Below are positions 1 to 61,382 of a stretch of 64,000 nucleotides of DNA, one piece after another. The number at the start of each line of letters is the position of its first letter. Position 1 is the stretch's first letter. A program made the position numbers and the translations under genes. The notes below the pieces were generated by a model. It was not told where the DNA came from. It ran no database searches and worked only from the letters and a program-made list of their open reading frames with translations. The stretch covers positions 81,216-145,215 of the forward strand of contig JBASTP010000002.1 in the NCBI GenBank assembly GCA_049274945.1. The letters are read 5' to 3'. This DNA comes from Patescibacteria group bacterium. Lineage in GTDB: Bacteria > Patescibacteriota > UBA1384 > GWA2-35-9 > JBASTP01.

Positions 1-433
1 AATCGAGTAATTGTTTTTTGAAGAGCTCATCTGTTCTTATGGCATTGATTATTTTCTTCAGTGAGATATCTAGAGAGCTGGTGTCAAAATTCAAGGACTG
101 ATACCTGGCAATAAATCCATAAGGATTTTCTCCATTAATGGCAAGGGGCATTATCTTTTTCCTTCTAGCAAAAGCAATTCCACATTCTTGATCAGTCCAG
201 TTGGATATTTTGTAATGGTCCGTGATAATGGGAATAAAAATATCGGTGCTATCTAGATGTCGCAAAATTACCTCTTGCCACTCATGAGAGGGAATAATAT
301 CTTCATGTGCTAAAAATATCTCGATGCCGTAACTTTCTAGACCGGACTTTATACGCCCGGCCAATTCCTTATCTTTAGTTGAATAGCTTAAAAATATTCT
401 AATAGTGCTAGGTACATTTCCAATAGTTTCCAT
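1..433 (-). CDS. TIR-domain protein, N-terminal ~144 aa; C-terminus lies beyond the window start
   Basis: Reverse-complement translation from ATG at 433 is open to position 1: METIGNVPSTIRIFLSYSTKDKELAGRIKSGLESYGIEIFLAHEDIIPSHEWQEVILRHLDSTDIFIPIITDHYKISNWTDQECGIAFARRKKIMPLAING... This matches the TIR_2 pattern (FLSYS...D, E-rich alphaC, W...E...A). Very AT-rich (~32% GC) compared with its neighbours. Absent from the ORF track because it has no in-window stop. Confidence 0.6.
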   Translation of the reverse strand, partial: METIGNVPSTIRIFLSYSTKDKELAGRIKSGLESYGIEIFLAHEDIIPSHEWQEVILRHLDSTDIFIPIITDHYKISNWTDQECGIAFARRKKIMPLAINGENPYGFIARYQSLNFDTSSLDISLKKIINAIRTDELFKKQLLD

Positions 434-434
434 G

Positions 435-505
435 CGGGGACGGAGGGGATCGAACCCCCGACTAGGGTTTTGGAGACCCTTGTGATACCACTTCACCACA
501 TCCCC
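435..505 (-). tRNA. tRNA-Trp (anticodon CCA)
   Basis: Reverse complement GGGGATGTGGTGAAGTGGTATCACAAGGGTCTCCAAAACCCTAGTCGGGGGTTCGATCCCCTCCGTCCCCG folds as a cloverleaf: 7-bp acceptor, anticodon loop CUCCAAA, T-loop TTCGATC. Confidence 0.85.
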
Positions 506-534
506 ATTACCGCCTAACGGCGGAAAACTAAATT

Positions 535-705
535 TTATTTTTTGCTCTCTTTATGCTCGGTGTGTTTGCGGCACTTGCGGCAAAACTTGGTAATCTCAAA
601 CTTCTTTTTAGCCTCGATCACCCCCTTCGACTTGCGCGAGGTGTAGTTGGTGTTGCCGCACACCGTGCAACGCAAGGCCATCAATTCTTTTTTGCTTTTT
701 GCCAT
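535..705 (-). CDS. rpmG: 50S ribosomal protein L33
   Basis: 56-aa ORF MAKSKKELMALRCTVCGNTNYTSRKSKGVIEAKKKFEITKFCRKCRKHTEHKESKK with the L33 CxxC...CxxC zinc ribbon. Below the 60-aa threshold of the ORF track. Confidence 0.85.
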   Translation of the reverse strand: MAKSKKELMALRCTVCGNTNYTSRKSKGVIEAKKKFEITKFCRKCRKHTEHKESKK

Positions 706-766
706 GTTATATTATTCCTTGTTTACTTACTGTGCTTGCCACGCGAAGCTCCAAAGGAGCGAAGTG

Positions 767-841
767 TGGAGCCGAGAGCGGGAATCGGACCCGCGGCCTT
801 TTGCTTACCATGCAAATGCTCTGCCACTGAGCTACCTCGGC
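767..841 (-). tRNA. tRNA-Thr (anticodon GGU), CCA encoded
   Basis: Reverse complement GCCGAGGTAGCTCAGTGGCAGAGCATTTGCATGGTAAGCAAAAGGCCGCGGGTCCGATTCCCGCTCTCGGCTCCA; anticodon loop AUGGUAA. The T-loop reads TCCGATT (C at position 55). Confidence 0.8.
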
Positions 842-1419
842 ATTAAACTAAATAGTAAATCTCGAAATTTTTTATTATGAAAGTAAACTGTCAAAACCCC
901 GTACTCACTTTTTTTCCGATATGTTCCCTTGGCCCTAGAAGGTGTAATAACAATTTTTTTGTGAAATTGGCTTCTCGGAACGTTTAAAACCTTTAACCAA
1001 TAATTTAAAACCGCCTCTGGATCAAGGTCATTAAAGATTTGCAGTCCAAATCTCAAATGATTCCTCTCAATTCTAAAGATTTTTACCAGAAAATCAATGA
1101 ATGTGTTAATTAATAAAGGATCAGAATTGCCCAATCGTATGGTGGTTTTATAAGTTTTTGCTCCTTCGCCCCAATATAAACCAATACCTAAACCCAACAA
1201 TTGCGCCTCTTCGAGAGTAGTGGGTTGTGTAAATAAGAAAGGATCTCCATCGGGATTATTCAATAGATATATCGCGTCGCTAATTGAACGTCTCTTAACC
1301 TGACGCTTCTCCATCCAATAGGCGACCTTGTGTAAAGAGCAATTCAGAAGAACAGCAATTTGTTGCATGGATTTCCCTTGCTTTAAATAGAAATCTTGGA
1401 GCACCTCCTTGGTAATCAT
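832..1419 (-). CDS. Free-standing protein with an N-terminal HTH and a single LAGLIDADG-like motif (homing-endonuclease-like)
   Basis: 195-aa ORF with a sigma-region-4-like HTH (SMQQIAVLLNCSLHKVAYWMEK) and the motif LLGLGIGLYWGEGAK...IRLGNSDPLLINTFIDFLVKIF, which resembles a LAGLIDADG helix plus downstream core. AT-rich. Its 3' end overlaps tRNA-Thr by 10 nt. Sits between tRNA-Tyr and tRNA-Thr. Confidence 0.45.
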   Translation of the reverse strand: MITKEVLQDFYLKQGKSMQQIAVLLNCSLHKVAYWMEKRQVKRRSISDAIYLLNNPDGDPFLFTQPTTLEEAQLLGLGIGLYWGEGAKTYKTTIRLGNSDPLLINTFIDFLVKIFRIERNHLRFGLQIFNDLDPEAVLNYWLKVLNVPRSQFHKKIVITPSRAKGTYRKKSEYGVLTVYFHNKKFRDLLFSLMPR

Positions 1420-1737
1420 AGTTCTATCATAACAGGCTTATGACGAGGGGTAAAGTAAATCCAAGCTAGTTTACAGGTCTACCATACAGTTCAGTCGGAA
1501 CCCCGACTTTGTGTAAGAGCTAATGGGCGAAATTAACCTAAATAGAAAATTTCTTATGGGTGGACGTTGATAAATCCTAATACCTTCTTTACTGTTAAAC
1601 TCAAATAGTCTTCCTGTAAAATCATCAGCCTTGAGCGGTTTTTTCAAATGTTTTTCAAGATCCAGCTCAGGAGGAAAACCCTGCTCTCTTGTGAGCTGCA
1701 ACGTATCATTGATTTCAATTAAACTTCCCATAATTTG

Positions 1738-1821
1738 TGCTGGGGGAGGGATTCGAACCCCCGAAGGCGTTGAGCCACGACGTTTACAGCGTCGCCTCGT
1801 TGTCCACTTGAGTACCCCAGC
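1738..1821 (-). tRNA. tRNA-Tyr (anticodon GUA), long variable arm
   Basis: Reverse complement GCTGGGGTACTCAAGTGGACAACGAGGCGACGCTGTAAACGTCGTGGCTCAACGCCTTCGGGGGTTCGAATCCCTCCCCCAGCA. Perfect 7-bp acceptor stem, anticodon loop CUGUAAA, A73 discriminator. Confidence 0.85.
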
Positions 1822-1873
1822 GCACATACATTATAGCTATAAGGTAAAAAATCCTCAACACACCTCCTGTCGC

Positions 1874-1913
1874 TTGACACTATCCCGGCGATGTGATGTA
1901 ATGATATTACATC
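1874..1913 (+). promoter_or_regulatory. Putative vapBC promoter/operator: TTGACA followed by the perfect inverted repeat GATGTAAT-GAT-ATTACATC, ending 1 nt before the ATG
   Basis: TTGACA at 1874-1879. 19-nt palindrome at 1895-1913, typical of an autoregulated RHH antitoxin operator. The mRNA is probably leaderless. Confidence 0.45.
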
Positions 1914-2195
1914 ATGAAACACCTGGTGAGAACCCAAATCAGTCTCCCGCAAGACCTGAAAGAGAAGATCACCCGCGAGGCGCGCCAGCGCAATATCAGC
2001 ATGGCGGAATACCTGCGCCAGGCAGCTGCCGCGTATGAGCGGAAAACGAAACTTACCCAAACCATGCGCCGGAAAATCGCCAACGAATTAAAAGGCAGCA
2101 TCAACCCAAAAACCGGCTGGGGATCAGTTGAACAGGTGAAGGAGTGGCTGCGGCGAGAACGCAATTTATCAGATGCCCGTCTTACTGGACTCTAA
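1914..2195 (+). CDS. Ribbon-helix-helix antitoxin (VapB/CopG-like)
   Basis: N-terminal RHH signature TQISLPQDLKEKITREARQRNISMAEYLRQA. Overlaps the downstream PIN gene by 23 nt. Confidence 0.7.
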   Translation: MKHLVRTQISLPQDLKEKITREARQRNISMAEYLRQAAAAYERKTKLTQTMRRKIANELKGSINPKTGWGSVEQVKEWLRRERNLSDARLTGL

Positions 2196-2553
2196 CATCT
2201 TGATCTATTATCTCCAGGACCAGCAACCATATGCTGACGCTGTAGAACAGTGGATTCAACAAGGCACCGTTGCCATTTCCGTTATCAGCATCGCCGAATA
2301 TCTATCGAAACCGCCTTTGGAGGGCACTGCCCCGCTCGAGAAAACCTTGTCGATCGTCGATGTGGTACCGGTTACCATTGAAATCGCAAAAACGGCCGGC
2401 GAGCTGCGGCATCGCCTGATTCGCAAACGCACTCGAGTCGCACTGATTGATTGCCTAATCGCGGCGACCGCCATTACCCGAGATTACCAAATTGCCACTG
2501 CTGATCGAAAAGGGTTCCCGTTCAAAGAACTCAAATTTGCGAAGTTCAAATAA
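2173..2553 (+). CDS. vapC: PIN-domain toxin VapC
   Basis: MPVLLDSNILIYYL...ALIDCLIAATA carries the conserved PIN acidic residues. Classic VapBC arrangement with the upstream antitoxin. Confidence 0.85.
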   Translation: MPVLLDSNILIYYLQDQQPYADAVEQWIQQGTVAISVISIAEYLSKPPLEGTAPLEKTLSIVDVVPVTIEIAKTAGELRHRLIRKRTRVALIDCLIAATAITRDYQIATADRKGFPFKELKFAKFK

Positions 2554-2555
2554 TA

Positions 2556-3068
2556 TCAACAACTTACTGTAACGGAAGGATCCAATGATTTACATGAAGG
2601 AGGGCTAGTCAAGACATCTTTCAAGGGACCCTGGCAACTATTGAAACCATTGGTAGTTGCCTTATTGACTGCAGTTTCGAAATCGAGCTTGTTGTCGTAG
2701 TCGCACTGCATTACTTTGCCAAGCCAGGCGGCGTTAGGGTTCTTAATGAATTGAGACTTTACGTTACAACCATGCTCACTTGGGCCAATAATCTCATATT
2801 GATAAGTCACGGTACCCACACTTAATGCCGCGAGATCTACACTGGGAGTATATCGAGTCGGCAGACACTGTTGAAATCGTTCGTTTATGCACTTTTTGGC
2901 AGGTTCCTCACGTTCTGGATATTCGAGGTTGGGGCTTCCGCAGTCCGCCACAGTGGTGGTCTTGCCTGCCAAAATTTGCCAAGCCACAGCTAAGATTAAG
3001 AGTAATGCCACAATAATTACGCTAGTCAAGAAACCGTTGGAAAGCCAAATCGATTCTTTATTAGTCAT
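2556..3068 (-). CDS. Hypothetical membrane-anchored or secreted Cys-rich protein
   Basis: 170-aa ORF with an N-terminal hydrophobic segment and at least 10 Cys. No recognisable family. Start ATG abuts the tRNA-Thr 3' end. Confidence 0.5.
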   Translation of the reverse strand: MTNKESIWLSNGFLTSVIIVALLLILAVAWQILAGKTTTVADCGSPNLEYPEREEPAKKCINERFQQCLPTRYTPSVDLAALSVGTVTYQYEIIGPSEHGCNVKSQFIKNPNAAWLGKVMQCDYDNKLDFETAVNKATTNGFNSCQGPLKDVLTSPPSCKSLDPSVTVSC

Positions 3069-3069
3069 G

Positions 3070-3141
3070 AGCCGAGGAGAGGATTTGAACCTCCGACCCG
3101 CGCTTTACAAAAGCGCCGCTCTACCACTGAGCTACCTCGGC
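3070..3141 (-). tRNA. tRNA-Thr (anticodon UGU)
   Basis: Reverse complement GCCGAGGTAGCTCAGTGGTAGAGCGGCGCTTTTGTAAAGCGCGGGTCGGAGGTTCAAATCCTCTCCTCGGCT; anticodon loop UUUGUAA. Confidence 0.8.
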
Positions 3142-3215
3142 TTGACCACTGAGTCCCGACGTTTCGGTCGGGAGGCCGACCCTGAAGGGCGTCGGCCCTA
3201 CCTCGGCACGGCTTA
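3142..3215 (-). repeat. tRNA-5'-fragment plus double-hairpin element immediately 5' of tRNA-Thr(UGU)
   Basis: The minus strand reads GCCGAGGTAG (a copy of the tRNA 5' end), then the hairpin GGCCGAC-N10-GTCGGCC, then the hairpin TCCCGAC-N6-GTCGGGA, then CTCAGTGGTCAA (D-loop-like), and then the intact tRNA. Confidence 0.5.
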
Positions 3216-3249
3216 ATTCTACCATAATCGAGCGGCGTTGAACGGCCAG

Positions 3250-3283
3250 CGAAGCCCCAATTGCCTAAGAGCGGATCACGGAG
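3250..3283. repeat. 34-nt exact repeat, copy 1: GCGAAGCCCCAATTGCCTAAGAGCGGATCACGGA
   Basis: Identical 34-mer at 32356-32389. Both copies are intergenic and lie 3' of a minus-strand gene. Confidence 0.7.
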
Positions 3284-3412
3284 GATTCGGCCGGGCTGGG
3301 TTCCTGAGCGAAGTCGAAGGAGAGGCCAAAACCGAGTGCCAGGGAGGGATTTGCCGCTGGAGCAAATCAACTCCCGGCGCTCGTGGCAATGGGGCGAGCC
3401 TGGCCGGGTAAA

Positions 3413-3910
3413 TTACCCCTCATGCAACTTATCGAGCATTGCCTTGTAGCGGTCGTTGGTTGAATCGAGCGACATTGCCTGTTTGAGCGCGGCTTCGGCC
3501 TTGCGCTTGTTACCCAGGCCCAAGTAAGCCATCGCCAAATTGTAGTGGCGCGCCGCCACCTGGCTATCGAAGCGTAGCACCGTGAGAAACGCATCACGGG
3601 CGTCTTTGTAGTTCTTCCGCTCAAGGTAAATAATGCCGAGTCTGTTGTATACCTTAGGTAGATCGGGTTTCGCGGCGGCGATTTTTAGGTAGTAGGCCTC
3701 GGCGGTGTCGTACTCGCGTGATTTGAAGGCCTGCTCTGCGCGAGCCAGCAACTCTTCCACAGAATTGGAATCGGTAACAGTGAGTGGTTTAGGAGTGTTG
3801 GAATCGGGCAAAACGCTCGTACTCCGGCCGATCGTGGTAAACGGCAAACGCTTCATGAGAATCACGAAGATTAAGCCAGCAACAAGGAGGGTAATAATTT
3901 CGAATGCCAT
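3413..3910 (-). CDS. TPR-repeat protein with an N-terminal transmembrane anchor
   Basis: MAFEIITLLVAGLIFVIL..., then TPR-like repeats (AEAYYLKIAAAKPDLPKVYNRLGIIYLERKNYKDARDAFLTVL...). Confidence 0.6.
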   Translation of the reverse strand: MAFEIITLLVAGLIFVILMKRLPFTTIGRSTSVLPDSNTPKPLTVTDSNSVEELLARAEQAFKSREYDTAEAYYLKIAAAKPDLPKVYNRLGIIYLERKNYKDARDAFLTVLRFDSQVAARHYNLAMAYLGLGNKRKAEAALKQAMSLDSTNDRYKAMLDKLHEG

Positions 3911-3911
3911 A

Positions 3912-4571
3912 CTAGCTACTTATTTTCACCAGCAGATTCTCGAGGAGGAGCCGCTCGTTGATGTTATAGACGAGCTGCCGTTTGGCCGTCAGACACTCCT
4001 CGATCAGCCGTTGGGTCGGCTCATCATATACCAAGGCTTCGCGGAGTGCAAGAACTAATGTGTCGATAAACTCCCTTGCCTGTTTTTGTTCGGCAAGCGT
4101 TCGGGCAAGGGTAAACTTCTCTTGAATTGACATTGCCGACAATTGCTTTGGAGCGGGGTAGCTGCCGAGCGGACTTGCGACACCTCCTAAGCGAACTTTT
4201 TCGAGCCGTGAGGCAAGGGTAATGGGAATGTCATCAACATGCTTGGCTTGGAAAAACATGAGGGTTCCCCCGGGTGGCTCCTCGACGATTTTAAGGAGCG
4301 CCGCCGCTGCCTCGCCCCAAAGTTTGCCGGCAATAAATGCTAGCTTGCCGCTACCGCCAAATGGCCGCACGATTAAACGCTTTATCAAACCGCGCACTTC
4401 ATCAATCGAAATCTCGGGTGAGTCAATCATCAGCCGATCGGCCGGGTGAATGGCCAGCCCACTGACGAGCTTATCAAAAAAATGTTTGGCTTCAGCAGGT
4501 TCTCCCACAAGGAGGTAGCCATGGGCGCCTTTACCCTCCTTGAGCTTAGTAATGAATTGATCAATCACCAT
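3912..4571 (-). CDS. holB: DNA polymerase III delta-prime subunit-like clamp-loader protein
   Basis: HGYLLVGE, an HPD...PE...IDEVR...FGG.GKLAFIAG block, and LLKIVEEPP (the LKTLEEPP motif). Degenerate P-loop, consistent with delta-prime. Confidence 0.65.
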   Translation of the reverse strand: MVIDQFITKLKEGKGAHGYLLVGEPAEAKHFFDKLVSGLAIHPADRLMIDSPEISIDEVRGLIKRLIVRPFGGSGKLAFIAGKLWGEAAAALLKIVEEPPGGTLMFFQAKHVDDIPITLASRLEKVRLGGVASPLGSYPAPKQLSAMSIQEKFTLARTLAEQKQAREFIDTLVLALREALVYDEPTQRLIEECLTAKRQLVYNINERLLLENLLVKISS

Positions 4572-4724
4572 GAGTATGTTGACACTACCGAGGTTCTGTG
4601 GTATTGTAAAGAAGGTTTAGGTTTTTCCGAAACCCCGCGGCCTACACCCAGGTTATCTGGTGGTCGAAACCGTTGGCAATACATTACTAACCCCCAGTTT
4701 ACCTGGGTCAATCCAAGCTATATT

Positions 4725-5012
4725 ATGGCTGAATTTCAAGACAAGGAACTCACCTGCCGCGATTGCGGCAAGCCGTTCATCTGGACCGCCGGAGAACAGG
4801 AGTTCTACAGCTCAAAAGGCTTTTCGAACCCTCCTGCTCGCTGCCCTGACGATCGCAAAAAAGCGAAAGAGCAGCGCAACTCCGAGCGCGTGATGTATCA
4901 AATCACGTGTGCCAATTGCGGCAAACCCGGTGAAGTCCCCTTCAAGCCACAGAACCCTGAGGGGCTCCTGTGTGCTGATTGTTTTAAAGAGAAACGCGCC
5001 CAAGCGGCTTAA
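4725..5012 (+). CDS. Zinc-ribbon protein (CxxC...FY..KGF...RC...C family)
   Basis: The track ORF 4446-5012 overlaps holB antisense. The plausible start is ATG 4725 (MAEFQDKELTCRDCGKPFIWTAGEQEFYSSKGFSNPPARCPDDRKK...CANCGKPGEV...CADCF). Upstream TTGACA-17-TATTGT at 4578-4606. Confidence 0.5.
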   Translation: MAEFQDKELTCRDCGKPFIWTAGEQEFYSSKGFSNPPARCPDDRKKAKEQRNSERVMYQITCANCGKPGEVPFKPQNPEGLLCADCFKEKRAQAA

Positions 5013-5205
5013 CGTCGCCTAGGTGGCGCAGCGTCCGCAAGCAACGGGAACAGAGCGTTTTCCCGGCGTGTTTGATGATGTTCGGCAAAAAGATCCGTTT
5101 AGTCCGGTGAAGTGAGTTGGGACGATTGTAACCGGTAACGGGCCGCTTGCCGCACCGTTCACAGATGCGTTCGGCATCATGCAGTCGAAGGGTTGTTTTA
5201 GCCAT
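4984..5205 (-). CDS. rpmB: 50S ribosomal protein L28
   Basis: CERCGKRPVTGYNRPNSLHRTKRIFLPN matches the L28 core (C..CGK....GN..SH...TKR). It has a roughly 10-aa N-terminal extension. Confidence 0.6.
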   Translation of the reverse strand: MAKTTLRLHDAERICERCGKRPVTGYNRPNSLHRTKRIFLPNIIKHAGKTLCSRCLRTLRHLGDVKPLGRVSL

Positions 5206-5240
5206 ACTTTGTATGCTAGCATACCTTCTAAAGGACGTCT

Positions 5241-5870
5241 ATGCTCTGGCAGCTACTTAGCTCCCCTTTTGAATTTGCCGGATTGCTCCTAGCGCTTGTT
5301 ACCGCCATCAGCTGGCACGAAGCGGCGCACGGTTTTATGGCGAACCGCCTTGGTGACGATACCCCTAAGCTTGCCGGGCGACTCACGCTTAACCCCCTAG
5401 CCCATCTCGATCCGATTGGCTCACTGTTTTTGCTCATTTTCGGTTTTGGCTGGGGTAAACCCGTGCCGATTAACTCAACAAAATTCCGCAATCCTGCGCT
5501 CGACGAGTTTAAAGTGGCAATCGCCGGGCCGCTCTCAAATATCATCCTGGCCACCGCCTTTGGCCTTTCGCTGCGCCTGCTTGGCGGATCCATTTCACAA
5601 AGCATCTTCGAACTGCTCTCTATTTTTGTATTCATTAATTTGGTGTTGGCGGTGTTTAATTTTCTGCCAATACCGCCGCTCGATGGTTCAAAACTGCTGC
5701 GCCTGGTGGTGCCGTTTGAAATCTACCTCATGATCGAGCAACTTGGCTTCCCGATCCTCATTGGGCTACTCCTCCTTTCGGCCATTGGGATACCAATTTT
5801 TAACACCGCAGTACTTGGACCCACGTCGGTCCTCTTCCAATTAATAACTGGTATCCAACCGACGTTTTAG
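5241..5870 (+). CDS. Site-2 protease / peptidase M50 family membrane metalloprotease
   Basis: HEAAHG (HExxH) within a transmembrane helix, polytopic membrane profile, and a later LDG motif. Confidence 0.7.
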   Translation: MLWQLLSSPFEFAGLLLALVTAISWHEAAHGFMANRLGDDTPKLAGRLTLNPLAHLDPIGSLFLLIFGFGWGKPVPINSTKFRNPALDEFKVAIAGPLSNIILATAFGLSLRLLGGSISQSIFELLSIFVFINLVLAVFNFLPIPPLDGSKLLRLVVPFEIYLMIEQLGFPILIGLLLLSAIGIPIFNTAVLGPTSVLFQLITGIQPTF

Positions 5871-5903
5871 ATACAATGCGGATCATGAGTGCGATCTGCG
5901 GAT

Positions 5904-5958
5904 CAGGGTGTGGCGCAGTTGGTAGCGCGTCCCGACGTACGTCGGGAAGGTCGCCGGA
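5904..5958 (+). pseudogene. tRNA-like 5' fragment in tandem with tRNA-Pro (acceptor plus D-arm retained, anticodon arm replaced by an 18-nt perfect palindrome)
   Basis: CAGGGTGTGGCGCAGTTGGTAGCGCG resembles the 5' half of tRNA-Pro. It is followed by TCCCGACGTACGTCGGGA (a perfect palindrome) and AGGTCGCCGGACA. There is no T-arm or acceptor 3' strand. Confidence 0.5.
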
Positions 5959-6031
5959 CAGGGTGTAGCTTAGTTGGTAAAGCGCCAGGCTGGGGGTCTG
6001 GAGATCCCGGGTCCGAGTCCCGGCACCCTGA
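5959..6031 (+). tRNA. tRNA-Pro (anticodon GGG)
   Basis: CAGGGTGTAGCTTAGTTGGTAAAGCGCCAGGCTGGGGGTCTGGAGATCCCGGGTCCGAGTCCCGGCACCCTGA. C1:G72, G37 and A73 are typical of bacterial tRNA-Pro. The T-loop reads TCCGAGT (C55). Confidence 0.75.
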
Positions 6032-6042
6032 CACAAAATATT

Positions 6043-8286
6043 ATGACCCAAACTACCTACACTAAAGCCGTAATTTCCCAAAAACTCGAGGACCGGTTCC
6101 TTACCACCCAGGTAATCGAACCAGATGATGCCGATTCAGAGCTCGGTACGCTCTTTGCGCTCGTCGAAATCACCCGGCCCTGGTACCCGAATGCTCAAAT
6201 CGGCCAGACTATTATCAACACCCTTAAACGCGAGTACTACCGCGGTAAATCTACTTCTGATCTCGAGAACTTCGAACAGGCCCTCAAGAAGGTAAACGAA
6301 ACGCTCGCCCGAATCACCGAAACTGGCGAGACCGACTGGATCGGCCGCCTTTCGTCGGTGATCGCCCTGCGAGTAGATAAACAAATCCACCTATCCTCGG
6401 CAGGCAATGCGCGCGGCTACCTACTGCGAGGCGGCAAGCTGGCCGAGGTAACTGAACCGAGTGTCCGGGCCGAAGAACCCCACCCGCTTGCCACCTTTTC
6501 ATCGATCGTCTCAGGAGAAATTACCACCAATGATGTGGTGTTACTCACGTCGCCAATCCTCATTGATGAGTTCGATAAAAACACCCTAAAAGACCTGATG
6601 ACCGACGAATCGAGCTACCAGGCCGCCACTAATATCATCAAACGCCTGCCTAAAGACAAACGTCGGATGGTTAACTTCTTAGTGCTCGGGGAGTCGCCCA
6701 AAACCGACGAGCGCTACCCCAGTGTGGTCTACCTTGATGAATCGGCAGGGGCAACCTCGACCGCCCTCAAAGATATAGTTACCAAACAAGTTATGCCTGC
6801 TCTCGAGGTGGGCATAGATGGGGCGAGTCGTGCGCTGGGCTTGGCGACAACCTACCTGCGAGAAAAAATCCTCCCGGAATCCAAACGGTTGGGCAAGCTC
6901 GCCTACGATCAAACCCGCAAACAAGCAGTCCCTTTTGTCCGGCAAACCATTACCAAAACCACCACCAAATTCAAGGAAGTTACCAAAGAAAAAGCCCCGA
7001 TTCATCAAAGCATCATTGGCAAAAATCTTTTCACGGTCCACGACTACCATGGGCCCAAGTCAGCTGCCGCCAAGGGGGAAAAAATAAAACTCCCTGTCCT
7101 ACGGCTGCCACCCCAAACCAAGGCCCGCTTGAGCTCGATTGGCGCGAGCTGGCTCGTCCGCGTGAAAAACTTTATTACAGAAGCTCGGCAGGGCAAGCGC
7201 CGTACCCAACTGCTCCTTGCCGGCGCCCTGGTGTTGGCGCTCATCCTCATCGTCTCAATCAGCGCGCAGCGCTCCACCTCAAGCTCAAAGGCTCGATTTA
7301 CTGATCAGCGGGAACGGCTCACCCAGGCGAAACGCCAAGCTGAGGAAGGTAAAACTGCCTTGATCTTCGGCCAGCAAGCCCAAGCGCAAAAACTCTTTGC
7401 CCAGGCGCTCGAGGGCGCTCGGTTTGCGGCGCCCCACCCCAAACTCAATGAAGAAGCCCAGTCAGTGCTCAGCGAAGTTGAAGGCCAACTCGACAAACTC
7501 ACCGCCACCACTCGGTTTAAGGACATGAAATCGATTCTTGAAATTGGCCAGGCAACCGGCATGGCAGAGTTTGATTCCAAAATCTGGGGGTTCAATGATT
7601 CAGGCAATTTGGTAGCCGCTAACCTGCTCGAAGGCACTACCGACCAAGTGGCGGCCGCCGAGAAAGCGGTCAAGGTAATCCTAACCGCCAAACAGGACGA
7701 TAAGCTATTCGGCCTTACTTCTGAAGCGCAACTCGTCCGGGGCCATCTCAAAGACAAAACCAACAAGGTTGTGCCAGCGCTCGAGGGCGCAACCCTTGGT
7801 AGCGGCAAAGACATGAAAATATTTGCCGGCAACCTCTACCTCCTTGATACCGAAGGTAACCAGGTTTGGCGCTATTCGCTTTCTGATGAAGGTTATAAAG
7901 GCGCCGCCGGGTTTTTCAAAAAGGGACCAGGGCTAGGGAGCGCCATAGGCATGGCGATCGACGGCGCGATTTATGTACTCCGAACCGACGGTAAAGTGGA
8001 TAAATATCTCAAGGGTGAAAAACAAGGGTTTAATCTTGCCGCCGCGCCCCAGCCCGACGAGACAATCAGCGACCCCAAAAAAATTGTGGCCGATGCCGAT
8101 TCGCTCTCGATCTTTATCCTAGACAACGCCAAAAACCGGCCGCGCCTAGTTGAGTATGGCAAGGACGGCAAGTACATTCACCAGTATGTATTCGAGCTCG
8201 GCTCGGTGGACGAGATCTACGTTGCCCCCCGCGGCCGCAAGGCGTGGCTCACCTCTGGCGGGAAGTTGTACGAAGTCAATTTATAG
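6043..8286 (+). CDS. Large hypothetical membrane protein (N-terminal cytoplasmic domain, one transmembrane segment, C-terminal repeat/beta-rich domain)
   Basis: 747 aa starting at MTQTTYTKAV. The track start at 5974 overlaps tRNA-Pro. Central transmembrane segment LLLAGALVLALILIVSI. C-terminal repeats such as GNLYLLDTEGNQVWRY and GAIYVLRTDGKVDKY. The N-terminal region loosely resembles a SpoIIE/PP2C-like fold (low confidence). Confidence 0.6.
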   Translation: MTQTTYTKAVISQKLEDRFLTTQVIEPDDADSELGTLFALVEITRPWYPNAQIGQTIINTLKREYYRGKSTSDLENFEQALKKVNETLARITETGETDWIGRLSSVIALRVDKQIHLSSAGNARGYLLRGGKLAEVTEPSVRAEEPHPLATFSSIVSGEITTNDVVLLTSPILIDEFDKNTLKDLMTDESSYQAATNIIKRLPKDKRRMVNFLVLGESPKTDERYPSVVYLDESAGATSTALKDIVTKQVMPALEVGIDGASRALGLATTYLREKILPESKRLGKLAYDQTRKQAVPFVRQTITKTTTKFKEVTKEKAPIHQSIIGKNLFTVHDYHGPKSAAAKGEKIKLPVLRLPPQTKARLSSIGASWLVRVKNFITEARQGKRRTQLLLAGALVLALILIVSISAQRSTSSSKARFTDQRERLTQAKRQAEEGKTALIFGQQAQAQKLFAQALEGARFAAPHPKLNEEAQSVLSEVEGQLDKLTATTRFKDMKSILEIGQATGMAEFDSKIWGFNDSGNLVAANLLEGTTDQVAAAEKAVKVILTAKQDDKLFGLTSEAQLVRGHLKDKTNKVVPALEGATLGSGKDMKIFAGNLYLLDTEGNQVWRYSLSDEGYKGAAGFFKKGPGLGSAIGMAIDGAIYVLRTDGKVDKYLKGEKQGFNLAAAPQPDETISDPKKIVADADSLSIFILDNAKNRPRLVEYGKDGKYIHQYVFELGSVDEIYVAPRGRKAWLTSGGKLYEVNL

Positions 8287-12400: not shown

Positions 12401-15205
12401 ATGACCGCCTTCTTTAATCCGCTTGGGGTACGCGAAATCCGAGCCCAAGCTAAACGATCAAAAATATGGGGTCGGCTCAAGTTGCCCGACTTCAAGGCTC
12501 CGAAAACCTGGCTGACGATCGGCATCGTCGCTCTATTTTTGTTTGCCTGGGTCTCCAAGGATCTGCCTACCCCGGGCAGGATTAAACGTAAAGTTAATGT
12601 TGGCTCAACCCAGATTTTGGATCGCAACGGCGAGCTGGTGTTTGCCTTCTCCGGTGAACAAAAACGGCTCGTGATCCCCTTTTCCGACATGCCGGAAACG
12701 ATTCGGGATGCCACCATTGCGGTCGAAGACAAAGATTTTTACAAACACCTCGGCATCAAGCCCACCTCGATTCTCCGCGCCGCTTGGCACAACCTAACTA
12801 ATACCAAATCTACCCAAGGCGGCTCGACCATCACCCAGCAGTTTGTCAAAAACGCCCTCCTTAACCCCAAGAGAAACCTGTTGCGTAAAGTTAAAGAAGT
12901 CATCCTTTCGCTCGAACTCGAGGCGCTCTACTCTAAGGATAAAATTCTCGAACTCTACCTCAATGAAATCCCCTACGGCACCAATGCCTACGGTGTTGAG
13001 GCCGCCAGCCGCACCTATTTTGGCAAGCCCGCTAAGGAACTAACCCTCGCCGAGTCGGCAGTGCTCGCTGGCTTGCCCCAAGCCCCTACCTACTTCTCAC
13101 CGTACGGTTCGCACAAAGATGAGCTGCTTCGGCGTAAAAACTTTGTGCTCGAGAAAATGTACGAGCAACACTACATTGATACTGCTGAGTTCGATCAAGC
13201 CAAAACTCAGGAAATTAAATTCCAACCGCGGCGAGACTCAATTATCGCCCCTCACTTCGTCTTCTACATTCGGGAACAGCTAACCAAAAAGTACGGTGAG
13301 CGAGTGGTTTCAGAAGGCGGGCTCAAGGTTACCACAACGCTCGACTTAAAAATGCAGCGGATTGCCGAAGACTCAATCGAAGAAGGCGCCAAGCGGCTCG
13401 ACCGATTTGGCGCCAATAATGCCGCAGCCGTCGTGCTGGACACCAAAAGTGGCCAAGTGCTCGCCATGGTAGGCAGCCGCGACTACTTCAACGACGAAAT
13501 TGACGGCCAATTCAACGTCACCATCTCCAATCGCCAGCCGGGTTCGGCATTCAAACCAGTGGTGTACGCTACCGCGATGAAACGCAATGATTTCAATCCG
13601 GCTCGGGTGATTTTTGACCTTCCCACTACCTTTGGCACCGTTTCGCCGGGCGGGCCCCCTTATAAACCCGATAACTACGACGGCAAAAACCGCGGCCCGG
13701 TAACGGTGCGCCAGGCGCTCGCCAATTCACTCAACGTGCCGGCGGTCAAGGTGCTCGCGCTCACTGGCCTACCCGAGGTACTTAAAACCGCCAAAGATAT
13801 GGGTATCACCACGCTCAATGACCCCAACCGCTACGGCCTCTCGCTGGTGTTGGGCGGCGGCGAGGTAAAACTGATTGAGCTCACCAATGCCTGGGCAACA
13901 TTGCTGAACGATGGCACCTACTCCAAACCGGTCTCAATCTTGAAAGTTGAAGACACCCGGAGTGGCAAAGTCCTTGATGAGTTCAAACGGTCCGAGCAGC
14001 ACCGAGCCCTTGATAAACAGATTGCCTACGAAATTACCAATATCCTTTCTGACTCCGATGCCCGTTCACAAGTGTTCGGGTTCACCAACCTCTTTTCCGT
14101 CCCCGGCCACTCAGTGGCAGTAAAAACCGGCACCACCCAAGAATTCCGCGACGCCTGGGCAGTCGGCGGCAGTAAGCAGGTCGCCGTAGGGGTGTGGTCG
14201 GGCAACAGCAACAACAAGGCTATGAAAAAGGGCGCCGACGGTTCAACAGTTTCAATTCCCATGTGGAATAGCATTCTCTCCCAAATCCTCCGCGACTGGC
14301 AGGATGAGCCGTTTGTTAGGCCAGACGGGATCCAGGAAGTAACCGTCGAAAAATTCTCGAACAAACTGCCTTCAAACGCATCCCGCGAACTTACGACCGA
14401 CATCTTTGCTGCCTGGCAGGTTCCCAAAGACAAAGACGACATTAACGTAACCGTGCGGGTGAACAAAGCAACCGGCAAGCTTGCCACCGTGCTAACGCCT
14501 TCGGAGTTGATCGAAGAACGAGTCGTTACCAAAATCCATTCCGAGCGGCCCAACAATCCCGACTGGGAAGAGCCGGTCGCCCGCTGGGCGCAAGAAAATG
14601 GCTTTATCCAAGCCGAAGCGCCGAGCGAGCAAGATGACCTCTACACTTCTGAACGAGTACCGATTATCACCATTACCAAACCCAAAAACGATGGACAGGT
14701 AGAAGGGGTTTTTGAAATCACCGCCGAAGCTTCGGCTCATTTCGGCGTTAAGCAAGTTGGGTTTGCAATCGATAATGCCCCAATTGCCACGGCAGTCAAT
14801 GCTCCTTACACCACGAGCTACAACGCCAATAATCTTTCTGGCGGCAACCACATTCTCAAGGTAACTGTTGAAGACACCAACAGCGCTAAAATTTCAAAAG
14901 AGATCACCATCCTTGTGGTGCGCGGTTCAGAAATACCGATCATCGGAGCTGTCCAAGTTTCTGCAATTGCTACCTCAAAGGCGACCGTGACTTGGACTAC
15001 TTCAAAACCGGCCGATGGCCAGGTGGATTATGGCGCCACGAACTCACTGGGCGCCACGTCCTCAATCCAAGGAAACCACACCACCGAGCACATAATCGAG
15101 CTTACCAACCTGACTCCTAAAACCACCTATTACTTCCGCGCCCGTTCGAAAGATTCCTCCGGCAGTCAGGGTATCTCCACAATCTCGAGTTTTACGACCC
15201 AGTAA
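12401..15205 (+). CDS. Bifunctional class A penicillin-binding protein (glycosyltransferase plus transpeptidase) with a C-terminal FN3/Ig-like extension
   Basis: GT51 motifs (EDKDFYKH, GGSTITQQ), transpeptidase SAFKP/SLN/KTGT motifs, and a C-terminal YYFRARSKDSSG domain. Confidence 0.9.
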   Translation: MTAFFNPLGVREIRAQAKRSKIWGRLKLPDFKAPKTWLTIGIVALFLFAWVSKDLPTPGRIKRKVNVGSTQILDRNGELVFAFSGEQKRLVIPFSDMPETIRDATIAVEDKDFYKHLGIKPTSILRAAWHNLTNTKSTQGGSTITQQFVKNALLNPKRNLLRKVKEVILSLELEALYSKDKILELYLNEIPYGTNAYGVEAASRTYFGKPAKELTLAESAVLAGLPQAPTYFSPYGSHKDELLRRKNFVLEKMYEQHYIDTAEFDQAKTQEIKFQPRRDSIIAPHFVFYIREQLTKKYGERVVSEGGLKVTTTLDLKMQRIAEDSIEEGAKRLDRFGANNAAAVVLDTKSGQVLAMVGSRDYFNDEIDGQFNVTISNRQPGSAFKPVVYATAMKRNDFNPARVIFDLPTTFGTVSPGGPPYKPDNYDGKNRGPVTVRQALANSLNVPAVKVLALTGLPEVLKTAKDMGITTLNDPNRYGLSLVLGGGEVKLIELTNAWATLLNDGTYSKPVSILKVEDTRSGKVLDEFKRSEQHRALDKQIAYEITNILSDSDARSQVFGFTNLFSVPGHSVAVKTGTTQEFRDAWAVGGSKQVAVGVWSGNSNNKAMKKGADGSTVSIPMWNSILSQILRDWQDEPFVRPDGIQEVTVEKFSNKLPSNASRELTTDIFAAWQVPKDKDDINVTVRVNKATGKLATVLTPSELIEERVVTKIHSERPNNPDWEEPVARWAQENGFIQAEAPSEQDDLYTSERVPIITITKPKNDGQVEGVFEITAEASAHFGVKQVGFAIDNAPIATAVNAPYTTSYNANNLSGGNHILKVTVEDTNSAKISKEITILVVRGSEIPIIGAVQVSAIATSKATVTWTTSKPADGQVDYGATNSLGATSSIQGNHTTEHIIELTNLTPKTTYYFRARSKDSSGSQGISTISSFTTQ

Positions 15206-17802: not shown

Positions 17803-19095
17803 TTACTTCTTGAGCAACTTTGCGATTAATTCACCAATGGTGCTTGCTTGTGGCGCGAGGATGTACCCCAACCGTTTTACCTCTTGCTCGCGGGCGTTTG
17901 CCTGAGACACTTTGCGGATCTCGCCGCTTAATCCAATCTCGCCAAAAATACAGATATTGCTTTCTGCCGCTAGATTCATTCGCGCCGAGGCGATCGCTAC
18001 TGCCACCGCAAGGTCAGCGGCGGGCTCCTTGAGTTTAACGCCTCCCACCACATTAATATAGATGTCTTGATCGGCGAGTTTGATGCCGGCGCGCTGCTGC
18101 AGCACCGCGGCAATCAAGTTTAACCGATTCACGTCAAACCCGTTGGCCGACCGTTTGGGGTAACCAAAGGCAGTGCCACTGGTGAGCGCCTGGACCTCTA
18201 CCAAGAACGGTCGGGTGCCCGACGTTGTACAGGTAATCACCGAGCCTGGCGCTTCACGCCGTTCTGACAAAAACAGCGACGAGGGATTTTTAATTTCCAC
18301 CAAACCCTTTTCGGTCATGGCGAACACGCCGATTTCGTCGGTGGCGCCAAAACGGTTCTTAACGCAGCGGAGAATCCGAAAATTCCGATACGGATCACCC
18401 TCAAGGTAGGCCACCGAGTCAACCAAGTGCTCGAGCATTCGTGGCCCGGCCACCGTGCCTTCCTTGGTAACGTGTCCTACTAAAATTACCGGTACCCGGC
18501 TCGATTTAGCAAATTGCTGGAGCCGCATGGCGCACTCCCGCACCTGCACGATTGAACCCGGGCTCGAAGGAAAATCGGGGTGGTAGACCGTCTGAATCGA
18601 ATCAACGATCAAAAGCTTGGTCTTTTCAGCCTCCAGAGTGTCTAGCATCTGGCCAATTTCAGATGCAGCCACTGCCTGGAATTGCCCCGCAAGGCCAATC
18701 CGCTCCGCTCGCAACTTAATTTGCTCGAGCGATTCTTCGGCAGAAAGATACACCGTGCCGGCAATCTTCTCGGCAACTTGCAGCAGGAGGGTTGACTTGC
18801 CAATGCCGGGATCGCCGCCAATGAGGGTAATGCTGCCGGGCACAATCCCCCCGCCAAACACCCGATCAAACTCAAACACCCCGGTTTCAATTCGGGAAAA
18901 ATCGGTTTGCACTACATCAGCGAGCAGTGAGAGTTGGAGAGGTTCTGTTTTCTGATGTCCCCTACTACCTATTCCCTTTGATACTGTAAACTCTTTGAGC
19001 GAGTTCCACTCCTGGCAGGTTGAGCACTGCCCCTGCCAGCGAATGAACTCCTCGCCGCAGTTAGAACAAACAAAGATCGTCTGGGATTTCGGCAT
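17803..19095 (-). CDS. radA: DNA repair protein RadA/Sms
   Basis: N-terminal C4 zinc finger (CSNCGEEF...CSTCQEW), RecA-like Walker A (GGDPGIGKSTLLLQ), KNRFG motif and a C-terminal Lon-like domain. Confidence 0.9.
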   Translation of the reverse strand: MPKSQTIFVCSNCGEEFIRWQGQCSTCQEWNSLKEFTVSKGIGSRGHQKTEPLQLSLLADVVQTDFSRIETGVFEFDRVFGGGIVPGSITLIGGDPGIGKSTLLLQVAEKIAGTVYLSAEESLEQIKLRAERIGLAGQFQAVAASEIGQMLDTLEAEKTKLLIVDSIQTVYHPDFPSSPGSIVQVRECAMRLQQFAKSSRVPVILVGHVTKEGTVAGPRMLEHLVDSVAYLEGDPYRNFRILRCVKNRFGATDEIGVFAMTEKGLVEIKNPSSLFLSERREAPGSVITCTTSGTRPFLVEVQALTSGTAFGYPKRSANGFDVNRLNLIAAVLQQRAGIKLADQDIYINVVGGVKLKEPAADLAVAVAIASARMNLAAESNICIFGEIGLSGEIRKVSQANAREQEVKRLGYILAPQASTIGELIAKLLKK

Positions 19096-43009: not shown

Positions 43010-43164
43010 AGAGACTCTTGACTCAACGTGTGCCCATTGACATCCCCACTAACCCCAACCCGCGCTCAATGCGCACCCCCTCCCGATGTCACATCGGGAG
43101 GGTTTTTATGAGATTTTTTTAGCCAAATAATCCTTGAGCTCCTTGAGCTTTACTCGTTCTTGTT

Positions 43165-56147: not shown

Positions 56148-56310
56148 AAAGGTGGGTTGCTCTCTCTCGGAATGAATCCCAGAGTTGGAACAGGTAAGCA
56201 TTTGACCGATTAGTACGCCTTGGCTCAAACCCTTGCGGGTCTTCCACCTAGCGCCTATCAAGGTCGTGGTCTTCGACCGGTCTATAACGAAGTCTAATCT
56301 TGGGGAGGGC

Positions 56311-56341
<31 letters not shown>

Positions 56342-56419
56342 GCCCGAGCATAGCTACCCAGCACTGCCCTTGGTAGGACAACTGGTACACCAGAGGCTCG
56401 GCTCCTCCGGTCCTCTCGT

Positions 56420-57165
56420 CACGTACTCTTCTATCACTAGAAGCGTAGACTATATCTTCACCCACCTTAGGCGGGGCCGGCATATTAGCTGCCTTTCGGC
56501 AACTCTCAAGCAGATGCTTTCAGTCGTTACGGGGTCAAGCCTAAAACCTCATATAATTCGTCTTTGGTTTTCTTTCTTCGAGTGACGTAGTTTTGCTGCT
56601 GCACACTCAGTATTAAATCAACCAGGTATCTCTTCTCTCTAGGAATCAAACGCAATTCACCTTTTTGAGAGAGTAGTATTGCTGCCTTGTAGATGGCTCT
56701 CGCCTGGATTTTTTTGAAACGGATATATGGCAATAATTTTTTAAGAATTCGTGCCACCTGTTGAAAACCATTAATCCGTAATTCAGTAATACCATCATTT
56801 CGGCGCGAGATATATCCGATCTTGATCCTTTTCTGAATCCACATTAACGGTTGTTCATGACGGCTATCTTGGTAAAAACAGATCGTAACCATGAATCTGT
56901 GACCAAGATTGCCATCTTTCCGTTTCTTGACTTGAAGCATTAAGCTCCCGTCACCATCAAGAAAACCAGCAATATATGCAAAATGAGTTGTAGACTGACT
57001 TCCCACGGTATTGTCTTAACTGGTTTGTGGTCCTCAAGTTAATTGTCTCACAATTTGCTGACCGAAGCAAACTGCCTGCAATGCACTAACCACTATTCCA
57101 ATTAAGATTCCACCGTTATAAGCCGGATTGTCATGCTCGATTGCTCGAACAAGTAGCAATTATTT
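56420..57165 (-). mobile_element. Group I intron D inserted inside the sarcin-ricin loop (between CCUAGU and ACGAGAGG, near E. coli U2656/A2657); carries a LAGLIDADG ORF
   Basis: Exon junction restores CTAGT|ACGAGAGGACCGG. Intron ends ...GATATAGTCTACGC...GTACGTG (terminal G), with P7-like GACTAT/ATAGTC pairing. Confidence 0.65.
56527..57006 (-). CDS. LAGLIDADG homing endonuclease (single motif, 159 aa) within intron D
   Basis: HFAYIAGFLDGDGSLML... Confidence 0.8.
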   Translation of the reverse strand: MGSQSTTHFAYIAGFLDGDGSLMLQVKKRKDGNLGHRFMVTICFYQDSRHEQPLMWIQKRIKIGYISRRNDGITELRINGFQQVARILKKLLPYIRFKKIQARAIYKAAILLSQKGELRLIPREKRYLVDLILSVQQQNYVTRRKKTKDELYEVLGLTP

Positions 57166-57216
57166 ACTAGGAGGGGAACCCCTCAGACTTCAACGCCCAC
57201 AGCAGATGAGGACCGA

Positions 57217-57564
57217 CAGTCTGTTGCTTGATAACCACATCCATAACCGAAATGTATCTGTGGCGCCCAGCACCTTTTGAATAAAAGGTACTGGATCTGC
57301 ATGTCGCCATGCAGCTCGGACTATATCTTCCTCGCCTTTTCAGGCGGGTCTAGCGTATAGTCTCTGAGGATTTCTGCATTACTGCAGATCTTTCCTGCTG
57401 ATTGTCTCCGTAGGTACAGCACCGTATGGCGCGTACCGTAGTCCAACCGGTTGCCCGTTGGAATTTTAGAGAGTTTCCAGCATATAGTCCCGACGGCCTT
57501 ACGGTGTCGGGATCCCGATCTCTTTCGAGCATCGGGACTAAATTTTGAGACAGCAAGGTTGTTT
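57217..57564 (-). mobile_element. Group I intron C, ORF-less (348 nt), inserted at GAGACAGU|UCGGUCC (peptidyl-transferase-centre A2602 region, near L2593-2604)
   Basis: Exons rejoin as ...GTCGCAAGACAGT|TCGGTCCTCATCTGCTGTGGGCG. P7-like GGGACTATATG ... GATATAGTCCG. Terminal G. Confidence 0.6.
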
Positions 57565-57664
57565 ACTGTCTTGCGACGTTCTGAACCCAGCTCACGTGGC
57601 GTTTTAACTGGCGAACAGCCAGACCCTTGGGCGCTGCTCCACGCCCAGGATACGCCGAGCCGAC

Positions 57665-58555: not shown

Positions 58556-58612
58556 CGACATTTCTATCGAGGTGCCAAACCGGGCCGTCGATATGGACTC
58601 TTGGGCCCGATC

Positions 58613-58649
<37 letters not shown>

Positions 58650-60737: not shown

Positions 60738-60775
<38 letters not shown>

Positions 60776-61335: not shown

Positions 61336-61382
<47 letters not shown>

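Follow-up and report, generated by a model that had tools for sequence, protein, structure and literature searches.

Possible scars of tRNA-gene replacement, decorated with short GC-rich palindromes, at two tRNA loci of a Patescibacteria genome

The window analysed here, a stretch of 64,000 nucleotides (nt) from contig JBASTP010000002.1 of a Patescibacteria metagenome-assembled genome (MAG; GCA_049274945.1), carries five tRNA genes, those for Trp, Thr(GGU), Tyr, Thr(UGU), and Pro(GGG), found with ARAGORN and the Rfam tRNA model. Two of them, tRNA-Thr(UGU) and tRNA-Pro(GGG), are preceded by a fragment of a tRNA that is combined with short perfect palindromes (Table 1), and the origin of these fragments is the subject of this study. 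A first-pass annotation had described both arrangements and had suggested a small hairpin element that targets tRNA genes and duplicates the 5' part of the target, possibly as a remnant of attachment-site (att) duplication by an integrase, or else a leader structure for tRNA processing. Rereading the sequence confirmed that both arrangements are present where they had been described.

The open reading frames (ORFs) between window positions 832 and 8286 encode a TPR protein, DNA polymerase III delta', a zinc-finger protein, ribosomal protein L28, an M50 protease, a PIN protein, and proteins of unknown function. The M50 protease gene (5241-5870) lies directly before the Pro locus. At the species level, the nearest match in the genome collection is a Berkelbacteria MAG (56% identity); orthologous loci with 74-94% identity in the M50 protease were gathered by a metagenome scan and protein look-ups, and loci are designated here by L and a number. 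Partial tRNA copies and orphan T-arms were surveyed over 170 loci (1.98 Mb, 198 tRNAs), and the matches were then read individually. Both ARAGORN and the Rfam tRNA model (E ≤ 1) call only the five intact tRNAs in the window, which agrees with the earlier view of the fragments as true partial copies and not functional tRNAs, and no other known RNA was found in the fragments by Rfam at E ≤ 1 over window positions 1-8000.

Table 1. Features of the Thr and Pro loci, and two hairpin sites in the 23S rRNA gene, by position in the window
Feature	Position	Strand	Evidence or remark
Putative promoter TTCAAC-15 nt-TGgTAGAAT	3216..3242	-	by eye; GGTAGAAT conserved in L168
GCCGAGGTAG = tRNA-Thr(UGU) positions 1-10, relic acceptor strand	3198..3207	-	counterpart of GCCCGCGTAG in L168 outer tRNA-Thr
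Hairpin 1, GGCCGAC-GCCCTTCAGG-GTCGGCC	3174..3197	-	perfect 7-bp stem; leader fold; same stem in same place in L168
Hairpin 2, TCCCGAC-CGAAAC-GTCGGGA	3154..3173	-	perfect 7-bp stem; independent hairpin in leader fold
CTCAGTGGT = tRNA-Thr positions 11-19, 3' piece of relic D-arm	3145-3153	-	read from sequence
CAA spacer	3142-3144	-	read from sequence
Intact tRNA-Thr(UGU), working copy	3069..3141	-	ARAGORN; Rfam tRNA model, 71.9 bits
TACAAT (putative -10 box), then TGCGGATCA-TGAGTGCGATC-TGCGGATCA local duplication	5872..5903	+	20-nt insertion relative to L081
CAGGGTGTGGCGCAGTTGGTAGCGCG, relic acceptor strand, D-arm, and G26 of resident tRNA-Pro(GGG)	5904..5929	+	81% identity to start of intact tRNA
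Perfect 18-nt palindrome TCCCGACGTACGTCGGGA, exactly in place of 17-nt anticodon arm	5930..5947	+	alignment to relatives
AGGTCGCCGGA = AGGTCGCCGG (variable loop and 5' strand of relic T-stem, 5948-5957), then A; end of relic	5948..5958	+	
Intact tRNA-Pro(GGG), different allele	5959..6032	+	ARAGORN; Rfam tRNA model
TCCCGAT..ATCGGGA, then TCCCGAC..GTCGGGA, in P2 region of 23S group I intron	57488..57537	-	second hairpin is an insertion relative to Rfam model
TCCCGAC-GTAAA-GTCGGGA, native 23S rRNA helix	60179..60197	-	alignment

The Thr leader amounts to a repeat of tRNA nucleotides 1-19 that is interrupted between G10 and C11 by a 44-nt double hairpin. By our own arithmetic, about 1e-8 chance occurrences would be expected of a 10-mer and a 9-mer that both match the tRNA exactly and follow each other in tRNA order within 70 nt. 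The sequence that follows the hairpins, CTCAGYGGT, is also found in L168 and L063. If the putative promoter is real, the relic would be the start of the tRNA-Thr transcript; a consensus promoter scan picked up neither the TGgTAGAAT candidate at the Thr locus nor the TACAAT candidate at the Pro locus, both of which were identified by eye.

The key to the Thr leader is locus L168, which has 89% M50 identity to the window, belongs to the same assembly as L163, and contains a nested array that follows the TPR gene. The array begins with GCCCGCGTAG, GGCCGAC..GTCGGCC, TCCCGAC[TCCCGACGCAAGGTCGGGA]CGTCGGGA, CTCAGCGGTAGAGCAGCTGTTTTG, and CCCGCCTGCCTTGATAT, and continues with an intact tRNA-Thr(UGU) with the acceptor strand GCCGCCC, then CAAGGCATTTCGGGCAG and GTAAACAGC..CCGACCGCGGGCT. 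One hairpin copy thus sits inside the loop of another hairpin. As a pattern, the leader reads xxGTAG, GGCCGAC..GTCGGCC, TCCCGAC..GTCGGGA, CTCAGYGGT, and the full 5' half ends in TTTTG, after which come CCCGCCTGCC.., the intact tRNA-Thr, ..CGGGCAG, and then the 3' half. The outer halves belong to one tRNA-Thr(UGU), in which the acceptor strand GCCCGCG of the 5' half pairs with CGCGGGC of the 3' half, and whose anticodon loop is interrupted at 34/35-35/36 by an insert holding a complete tRNA-Thr. The 256-nt region is predicted to fold as a cloverleaf within a cloverleaf (-146.6 kcal/mol, z = -9.0). The window and L168 have in common the promoter-like GGTAGAAT, the junctions of GTAG with the hairpins and of the hairpins with CTCAGYGGT, and both hairpin stems. 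In the window the relic ends in the D-loop and the 3' half is gone, the tRNA being followed instead by a block of about 1.25 kb. This comparison shows the Thr leader to be a truncated remnant of the 5' half of an outer tRNA; in L168, the outer tRNA still surrounds the intact one.

Two further relatives indicate that occupied and empty sites coexist at this locus. L169 has an interrupted 5' half, in which ..GCGCTTTTG is followed by CCTGCCCGCC.. and then by another tRNA, and it is without the D-arm hairpins of L168 and the window. L162 has an upstream flank identical to that of L169, and its loop reads straight through as TTTTGTAA. This comparison of empty sites, together with the six relatives that have one plain tRNA-Pro (below), had been proposed in the first-pass annotation and bears out the existence of unoccupied sites.

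At the Pro locus, the fragment is 55 nt long in all and covers tRNA positions 1-26 plus 44-53. Over its first 26 nt it agrees fully with the start of the L169 tRNA-Pro and has one mismatch each to L081 and L166, and its AGGTCGCCGG recurs as the variable loop and T-stem in L161 and L164. A single tRNA-Pro occupies the orthologous site in six relatives (77-94% identity in the adjacent M50 protease); in L081, L163, L166, and L169 it is a tRNA-Pro(GGG) directly after the M50 gene, and in L161 and L164 it is noncanonical. The D-arm of the window fragment, GCGCAG..AGCGC, is common to all six. The intact window tRNA-Pro differs from these genes in its D-arm (GCTTAGTTGGTAAAGC) and anticodon stem; its positions 1-48 are identical to those of the distant L002 and its T-stem matches L166 and L169, so that the working allele is possibly a chimera. 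Alignment therefore identifies the fragment as the displaced old resident gene and the intact gene as a different allele. By parsimony, the ancestor of the clade would have had a tRNA-Pro of the GCGC type, which was broken in the window lineage, where the other allele now works. An origin of the palindrome as the mutated or inverted anticodon arm of the resident gene was rejected, since the sequences do not match.

Some details of this locus stand apart from the fragment itself. A small duplication, TGCGGATCA..TGCGGATCA, lies at 5877-5905 and is missing from L081. The tRNA-Pro(GGG)-like gene of L161 (1193-1268) is identical to that of L164 (1322-1397), and ARAGORN makes no call on it. It is without G18G19 (D-loop AGTTAGTTA) and without T54-Psi55-C56 (T-loop GGCAGAG), both partners of the contact between D-loop and T-loop being gone together. 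The window tRNA-Pro and tRNA-Thr(GGU) have C at T-loop position 55.

Nested or fragmentary tRNAs of the same kind are found in other, distant Patescibacteria. L063 has a fully nested tRNA-Thr(GGU) with a double hairpin at 10/11 (fold z = -6.9), a second double hairpin before the 3' half, and a further hairpin in the T-loop. L021 and L068 have a nested tRNA-Trp whose outer copy holds two hairpins in its D-loop, the D-loop of an outer tRNA-Arg holds another tRNA-Arg in L101, and the nested tRNA-Thr of L014 comes with perfect 12-bp inverted repeats. There are 5' relics with hairpins in L005 (Val) and L004 (Thr), and degenerate remains of an outer anticodon arm around the tRNA-Thr of L001. In L076, 3' halves of Trp, Tyr, and Thr lie downstream of the intact genes with a double hairpin abutting each. 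In every case read, the cargo tRNA is cognate to the broken gene, and the loop of the outer tRNA that hosts it is mostly the anticodon loop, around positions 34-36, with hairpins in other loops. Where both outer strands are kept (L168, L063, and L021/L068), the outer and inner acceptor stems are each self-complementary yet differ from each other, by one compensated pair in L063. Differences by compensated pairs indicate that both alleles once functioned and that neither is a decayed local copy of the other. Comparison of L021 with L068 shows decay of the tRNA-derived parts.

The inner tRNA of the Thr, Trp, and Arg cases is bracketed by a second end motif, CCYGCCYGCC..GGCAGGCGGG, which also occurs free of cargo and sometimes as a loop-less palindrome; 30 of its 224 copies lie within 80 nt of a tRNA, and the window has a single, unrelated copy of CCYGCCYGCC. 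Perfect loop-less 20-nt palindromes stand beside tRNAs in L005 (CCTGCCTGCCGGCAGGCAGG, at about 18432-18451) and L021 (CCTGCCTGTCGGCAGACAGG, 14850-14869); they have the same arms as the brackets of nested tRNAs elsewhere and resemble an empty bracket. A different scar is seen downstream of tRNA-Tyr in L010 (720-925) and of tRNA-Ser in L045 (6270-6460), where tandem repeats consist of the tRNA 3' end (from the T-loop) and a trailer of about 70-90 nt, without a hairpin of the TCCCGA family. Searches of the open-access literature turned up neither nested tRNA genes nor this hairpin family for the Candidate Phyla Radiation (CPR).

The nested arrangement resembles the split, permuted, and intron-containing tRNAs of archaea and algae (PMC4390854) in that the halves are separated and the acceptor strands still pair. 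In those systems, the halves are rejoined by a splicing endonuclease and a ligase. Here the outer copy has large insertions in other arms, and the predicted junction of L168 is without a bulge-helix-bulge motif, consisting of a helix, a 3-nt bulge, a 6-bp helix, and a 2x3 internal loop and not of the 3-4-3 arrangement.

With a probability that we put at about 0.55, both window features are what tRNA-gene replacement left behind, scars that bear a family of short GC-rich palindromes. The alignments identify each fragment as the remains of an older copy of the same tRNA, dead, truncated, and with hairpins in place of arms, and directly 3' of each stands an intact copy whose sequence history is different. 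The full architecture, as read in the relatives, has a broken cognate tRNA with an intact tRNA in one of its loops, the latter flanked by a leader and a trailer that pair with each other. The window versions are truncated forms of it whose outer 3' halves are lost, and occupancy and hairpin positions vary among close relatives. Under this interpretation, an incoming tRNA allele with short self-pairing flanks would recombine into the resident gene, and because the cargo always matches its target, the insertion may be guided by homology. Breaks made by homing-type nucleases beside tRNA genes may trigger it. Such an insertion would kill the old gene yet supply a replacement and would for this reason be tolerated and not easily lost. 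Hairpins of the types TCCCGAY..RTCGGGA and GGCCGAC..GTCGGCC may either be the ends of the inserted DNA or land in loops of RNA genes and persist only in a dead copy. The relics would have no present function and would be transcribed from the old promoter as a structured 5' leader, in which self-contained folding of the hairpins could keep the relic from mispairing with the tRNA and which RNase P would remove as a whole. The earlier interpretation is thus partly supported: its fragments are partial tRNA copies, and they would be relics of replaced genes, not duplications made by a hairpin, given that the Pro fragment aligns as an old resident gene and the Thr fragment as a truncated outer 5' half.

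The hairpins themselves form a recurring family. TCCCGAC-N(2-12)-GTCGGGA occurs four times in the window, against 0.01 expected, and a CCGAC core is present in 5 of the 85 perfect window hairpins with stems of at least 7 bp. Across 1.99 Mb, TCCCGA..TCGGGA has 25 non-redundant matches, about 8-fold more than the 3.3 obtained after shuffling. Just 4.7% of the sequence is within 200 nt of a tRNA, yet 10 of these 25 matches are found there, and the recurrence and tRNA linkage that had been proposed for the hairpin therefore hold. Tandem hairpin pairs adjoin a tRNA and a fragment in the window, L168, L004, L063, and L076. Presence of the hairpin differs at orthologous sites, as at the Pro locus, where the relic contrasts with plain genes, and in the Thr D-arm, where L169 differs from L168 and the window. 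A third such site is rpmB of L081 (5344-5362, minus strand), in which TCCCGAC-GTAAC-GTCGGGA forms an in-frame insertion of about 20 nt in the variable N-terminal extension of L28 and is missing from the window, L161, L162, and L163.

Other copies lie away from tRNAs. The 14-mer ATCGGGATCCCGAC is found both in the hairpin pair of the window 23S intron and beside the tRNA-Trp half of L076. The 23S rRNA gene (56199-61924, minus strand) is in pieces, with group I introns at 59804-60006 and 57297-57557 and further insertions of about 352 and 756 nt in its 3' domain. The earlier view of the TCCCGAC..GTCGGGA motif as an inserted element needs correction for the copy at 60179-60197, which was rejected as an insertion because it aligns to a native 23S rRNA helix. 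The window copy at 43081-43099 is part of an ordinary terminator. Five tailed-phage fragments (IMG/VR; L174 and L176-L179) carry TCCCGAC-TGAA-GTCGGGA followed by TCCCGAT-CGTT-GTCGGGA between head-module genes; they encode terminase, portal, and HK97-type major head proteins, and an identification of these viral contigs as single-stranded DNA phages was rejected on account of these tailed-phage genes. The phage double hairpin may serve as a host-linking marker for CPR phages. A model of P-nucleotides or hairpin-capped breaks for the double palindromes was rejected since the arms are not copies of the flanking tRNA.

Bacterial REP/BIME elements and the Rickettsia palindromic elements are comparable short palindromic elements, and by analogy the hairpin family seems to behave like REP elements, mitochondrial GC clusters, and double-hairpin elements. 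A sequence-specific function of the hairpins, for example in protein binding, is compatible with this. Like the mitochondrial GC clusters, double-hairpin elements, and repetitive hairpin-forming elements (PMC4478555, PMC2800124), the hairpins are short GC-rich palindromes, often in adjacent pairs, that are over-represented and variable in position, being found in intergenic DNA, an intron, rRNA, and even in frame within rpmB. Their sequences are unrelated to those elements, however, and here the carriers are a CPR host and phages and the association with tRNAs and tRNA fragments is tight. In contrast to REP-type elements, no transposase (e.g., RAYT) was identified for the family within the stretches examined.

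Possible genes for homing-type nucleases lie beside some of the tRNAs. In L161, an HNH_repeat protein, of a family associated with homing endonucleases, directly follows tRNA-Pro (E = 2.5e-14), and in L076 an ORF that looks GIY-YIG-like by eye precedes tRNA-Tyr. In the window, an ORF of 195 amino acids (832-1419, minus strand) fills a low-GC stretch between tRNA-Tyr and tRNA-Thr(GGU) and ends inside the latter, its stop codon TAG being tRNA positions 8-10. Its motif LLGLGIGLYWGEG is LAGLIDADG-like by eye only, nothing usable came from Pfam, a PDB sequence search, or AlphaFold (pLDDT 49), and it has no similarity to the HNH_repeat protein of L161. L168 and L001 are without this ORF, and their tRNA-Tyr and tRNA-Thr(GGU) are 4-82 nt apart. 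Free-standing homing endonucleases in tRNA clusters (T4-type SegB; PMC13096335) offer a parallel in that nuclease genes lie among tRNA genes and are accompanied by local rearrangement or amplification; unlike there, the link here is circumstantial, through the L161 protein, the L076 ORF, and the unverified window ORF. No integrase was found among the window ORFs at 832-8286 or in the gene tables of the relatives for the corresponding stretches.

The surroundings of the Thr locus have further peculiarities. The block of about 1.25 kb between tRNA-Thr(UGU) and tRNA-Tyr (window 1822-3068) is an insertion relative to L168 and L001 and contains an orphan ORF of 170 amino acids that starts at the tRNA 3' end, a PIN-domain toxin gene (2173-2553), and a small upstream ORF. 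The orphan ORF matched itself alone among 5.8 billion proteins and so added no relatives. Between the TPR gene and the tRNA-Thr leader lies about 200 nt of GC-rich noncoding DNA (3211-3412), which has CCCCATTGCCAC...CTCGACTTCGCTC in common with L171 (66% TPR identity), has no Rfam match, and may be a small RNA or another repeat. Its motif CCTGAGCGAAGTCGAAGG (3303-3322) is found again as an inverted pair after tRNA-Pro in L166.

Several observations weigh against replacement scars as the explanation. The resident and incoming alleles at the Pro locus are assigned by parsimony alone, the contig that represents the empty site in L162 extends just 3 nt beyond the junction, the junctions read show no target-site duplications, and no recombinase or nuclease is linked to the events. 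The copies in the 23S helix and the terminator mean that the motif is not exclusively mobile, and the position of the double hairpin exactly at the breakpoint in L076 and L063 suggests that it was part of the inserted DNA and not a later arrival. The hairpin stems of the window and L168 are identical though loops and flanks have diverged, and compensatory changes distinguish the two D-loop hairpins of the outer tRNA-Trp in L021 from those in L068; both facts point to selection on the hairpins and thus to function and not junk. They also speak for a functional leader or scaffold, in which the hairpins, and perhaps the outer halves, would be selected precursor structures that direct RNase P, RNase Z, or RNase III processing, shield the 5' end, or insulate against read-through, the tRNA-like pieces being exapted or incidental. 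We consider this unlikely overall. The same double-hairpin stems stand at 10/11 in the window, L168, and L063; a relative of 60% identity has two different hairpins immediately 5' of tRNA-Thr; the precursors fold far better than shuffled sequences; and pairing of leader and trailer around the inner tRNA is kept while the sequences differ by lineage, so that structure and not sequence appears conserved. Yet the close relatives L081, L163, L166, L169, and L162 have plain tRNAs, which makes the leader dispensable, the hairpin is also present within a protein-coding region, within a group I intron, and between phage genes, and the tRNA-derived parts are decaying in L021 and L068 and truncated in the window. 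The processing leader proposed at the outset is not supported as stated but keeps some probability, since the stems are conserved and covary between L021 and L068.

An origin from integrase-bearing elements that integrated and were then almost entirely lost, leaving a partial tRNA and an attP arm (the hairpins) as attL/attR scars, is still less probable, and the earlier suggestion of att duplication fits poorly. Integrative elements such as tyrosine-integrase phages, integrative and conjugative elements, and islands are described as leaving partial tRNA copies as attL/attR (Reiter 1989, Williams 2002, cited in PMC9897764). A truncated copy beside an intact copy of the same tRNA is the classic signature of integration, and the intact gene can be a resident/incoming chimera, as the window tRNA-Pro appears to be with its foreign 5' two-thirds and native T-arm. 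L076, L010, and L045 have a 3' fragment with a duplicated trailer downstream of an intact tRNA, and by our own inference the 18-nt palindrome with its 7-bp arms resembles a recombinase core site. However, known att copies lie kilobases apart around an integrase element and the fragment is normally 3', whereas here the copies are 0-3 nt apart (3 nt for Thr, 0 nt for Pro), with no element body and no integrase at the loci examined; the window fragments are 5' parts and other loci keep both halves, with hairpins at the junctions. A complete inner tRNA between both outer halves is impossible from a single crossover, and the junctions were not found in 2.9 million viral contigs, where TCGGGACTCAG..GGTAGAGC gave one chance match in a coding region and GGTAGAGC..TTTTGCCYGCC none. 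Degenerate group I introns, formerly held in the anticodon loops of the outer tRNAs and leaving peripheral helices as hairpins, are very unlikely. The group I introns that are common in Patescibacteria tRNAs (PMC13011429) belong to the same phylum, target the anticodon loop from 33/34 to 36/37 (at 33/34, 35/36, and 36/37), and must leave the tRNA supply intact. The nested inserts of L168, L001, L021, and L068 lie at 34/35-35/36 and can end in G, the junctions of L168 and L001 read TTTT/G...G/GTAA, which is compatible with a 5' exon that ends in U and an intron that ends in G, and the double hairpin with ATCGGGATCCCGAC is shared by the P2 region of the 23S intron and the L076 tRNA-Trp half. Against this, the group I core (RF00028) was not detected at E ≤ 1 in window 1-8000 or in L076 5000-7500, although the same model finds the two 23S introns. 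The insert is a whole intact tRNA and not a ribozyme, function would be kept by replacement and not by splicing, and the outer gene is defunct; the hairpins of the window lie within the D-stem or replace the anticodon arm, and the relics break in the D-arm and T-stem and not in the anticodon loop. L014 and L076 are also without the terminal G, and the L076 hairpins abut the 3' exon, whereas P2 is at the 5' end of an intron. An assembly artefact, in which tRNA alleles of two strains were concatenated or the assembler made the palindrome, is scarcely credible: the source is a MAG and several related contigs break in or beside these tRNAs, but both features lie deep within a 166-kb contig and the same architecture recurs in independent NCBI, ENA, JGI, and Logan assemblies of different lineages.

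Replacement of tRNA genes, which we continue to prefer, can be taken a step further. Patescibacteria may carry undescribed mini "tRNA replacement cassettes", each an intact tRNA bounded by hairpin-forming inverted repeats (e.g., CCYGCCYGCC..GGCAGGCGGG or TCCCGAY..RTCGGGA) that homes into the loop of a cognate tRNA, a proposal that we regard as tentative. A cassette of this kind would kill the old copy and supply a new one and could spread between strains in consequence. On this proposal, perfect loop-less palindromes such as the one in the tRNA-Pro relic would represent either empty cassettes or footprints of excision, and the double hairpins shared with phages might be a recognition structure for a hairpin-acting enzyme of host or phage.

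If these insertions are of the homing type, they would give selfish DNA a third route into essential tRNA genes that the host survives, beside the two known ones, self-splicing introns and integrases that rebuild the gene. If true, this would help to explain the fast turnover of tRNA acceptor stems and alleles among close CPR relatives. Loci of this type also lead to missed or spurious tRNA calls and to contig breaks in CPR genomes, and the hairpin family could serve as a marker for finding the enzyme that recognizes it and for linking phages to CPR hosts.

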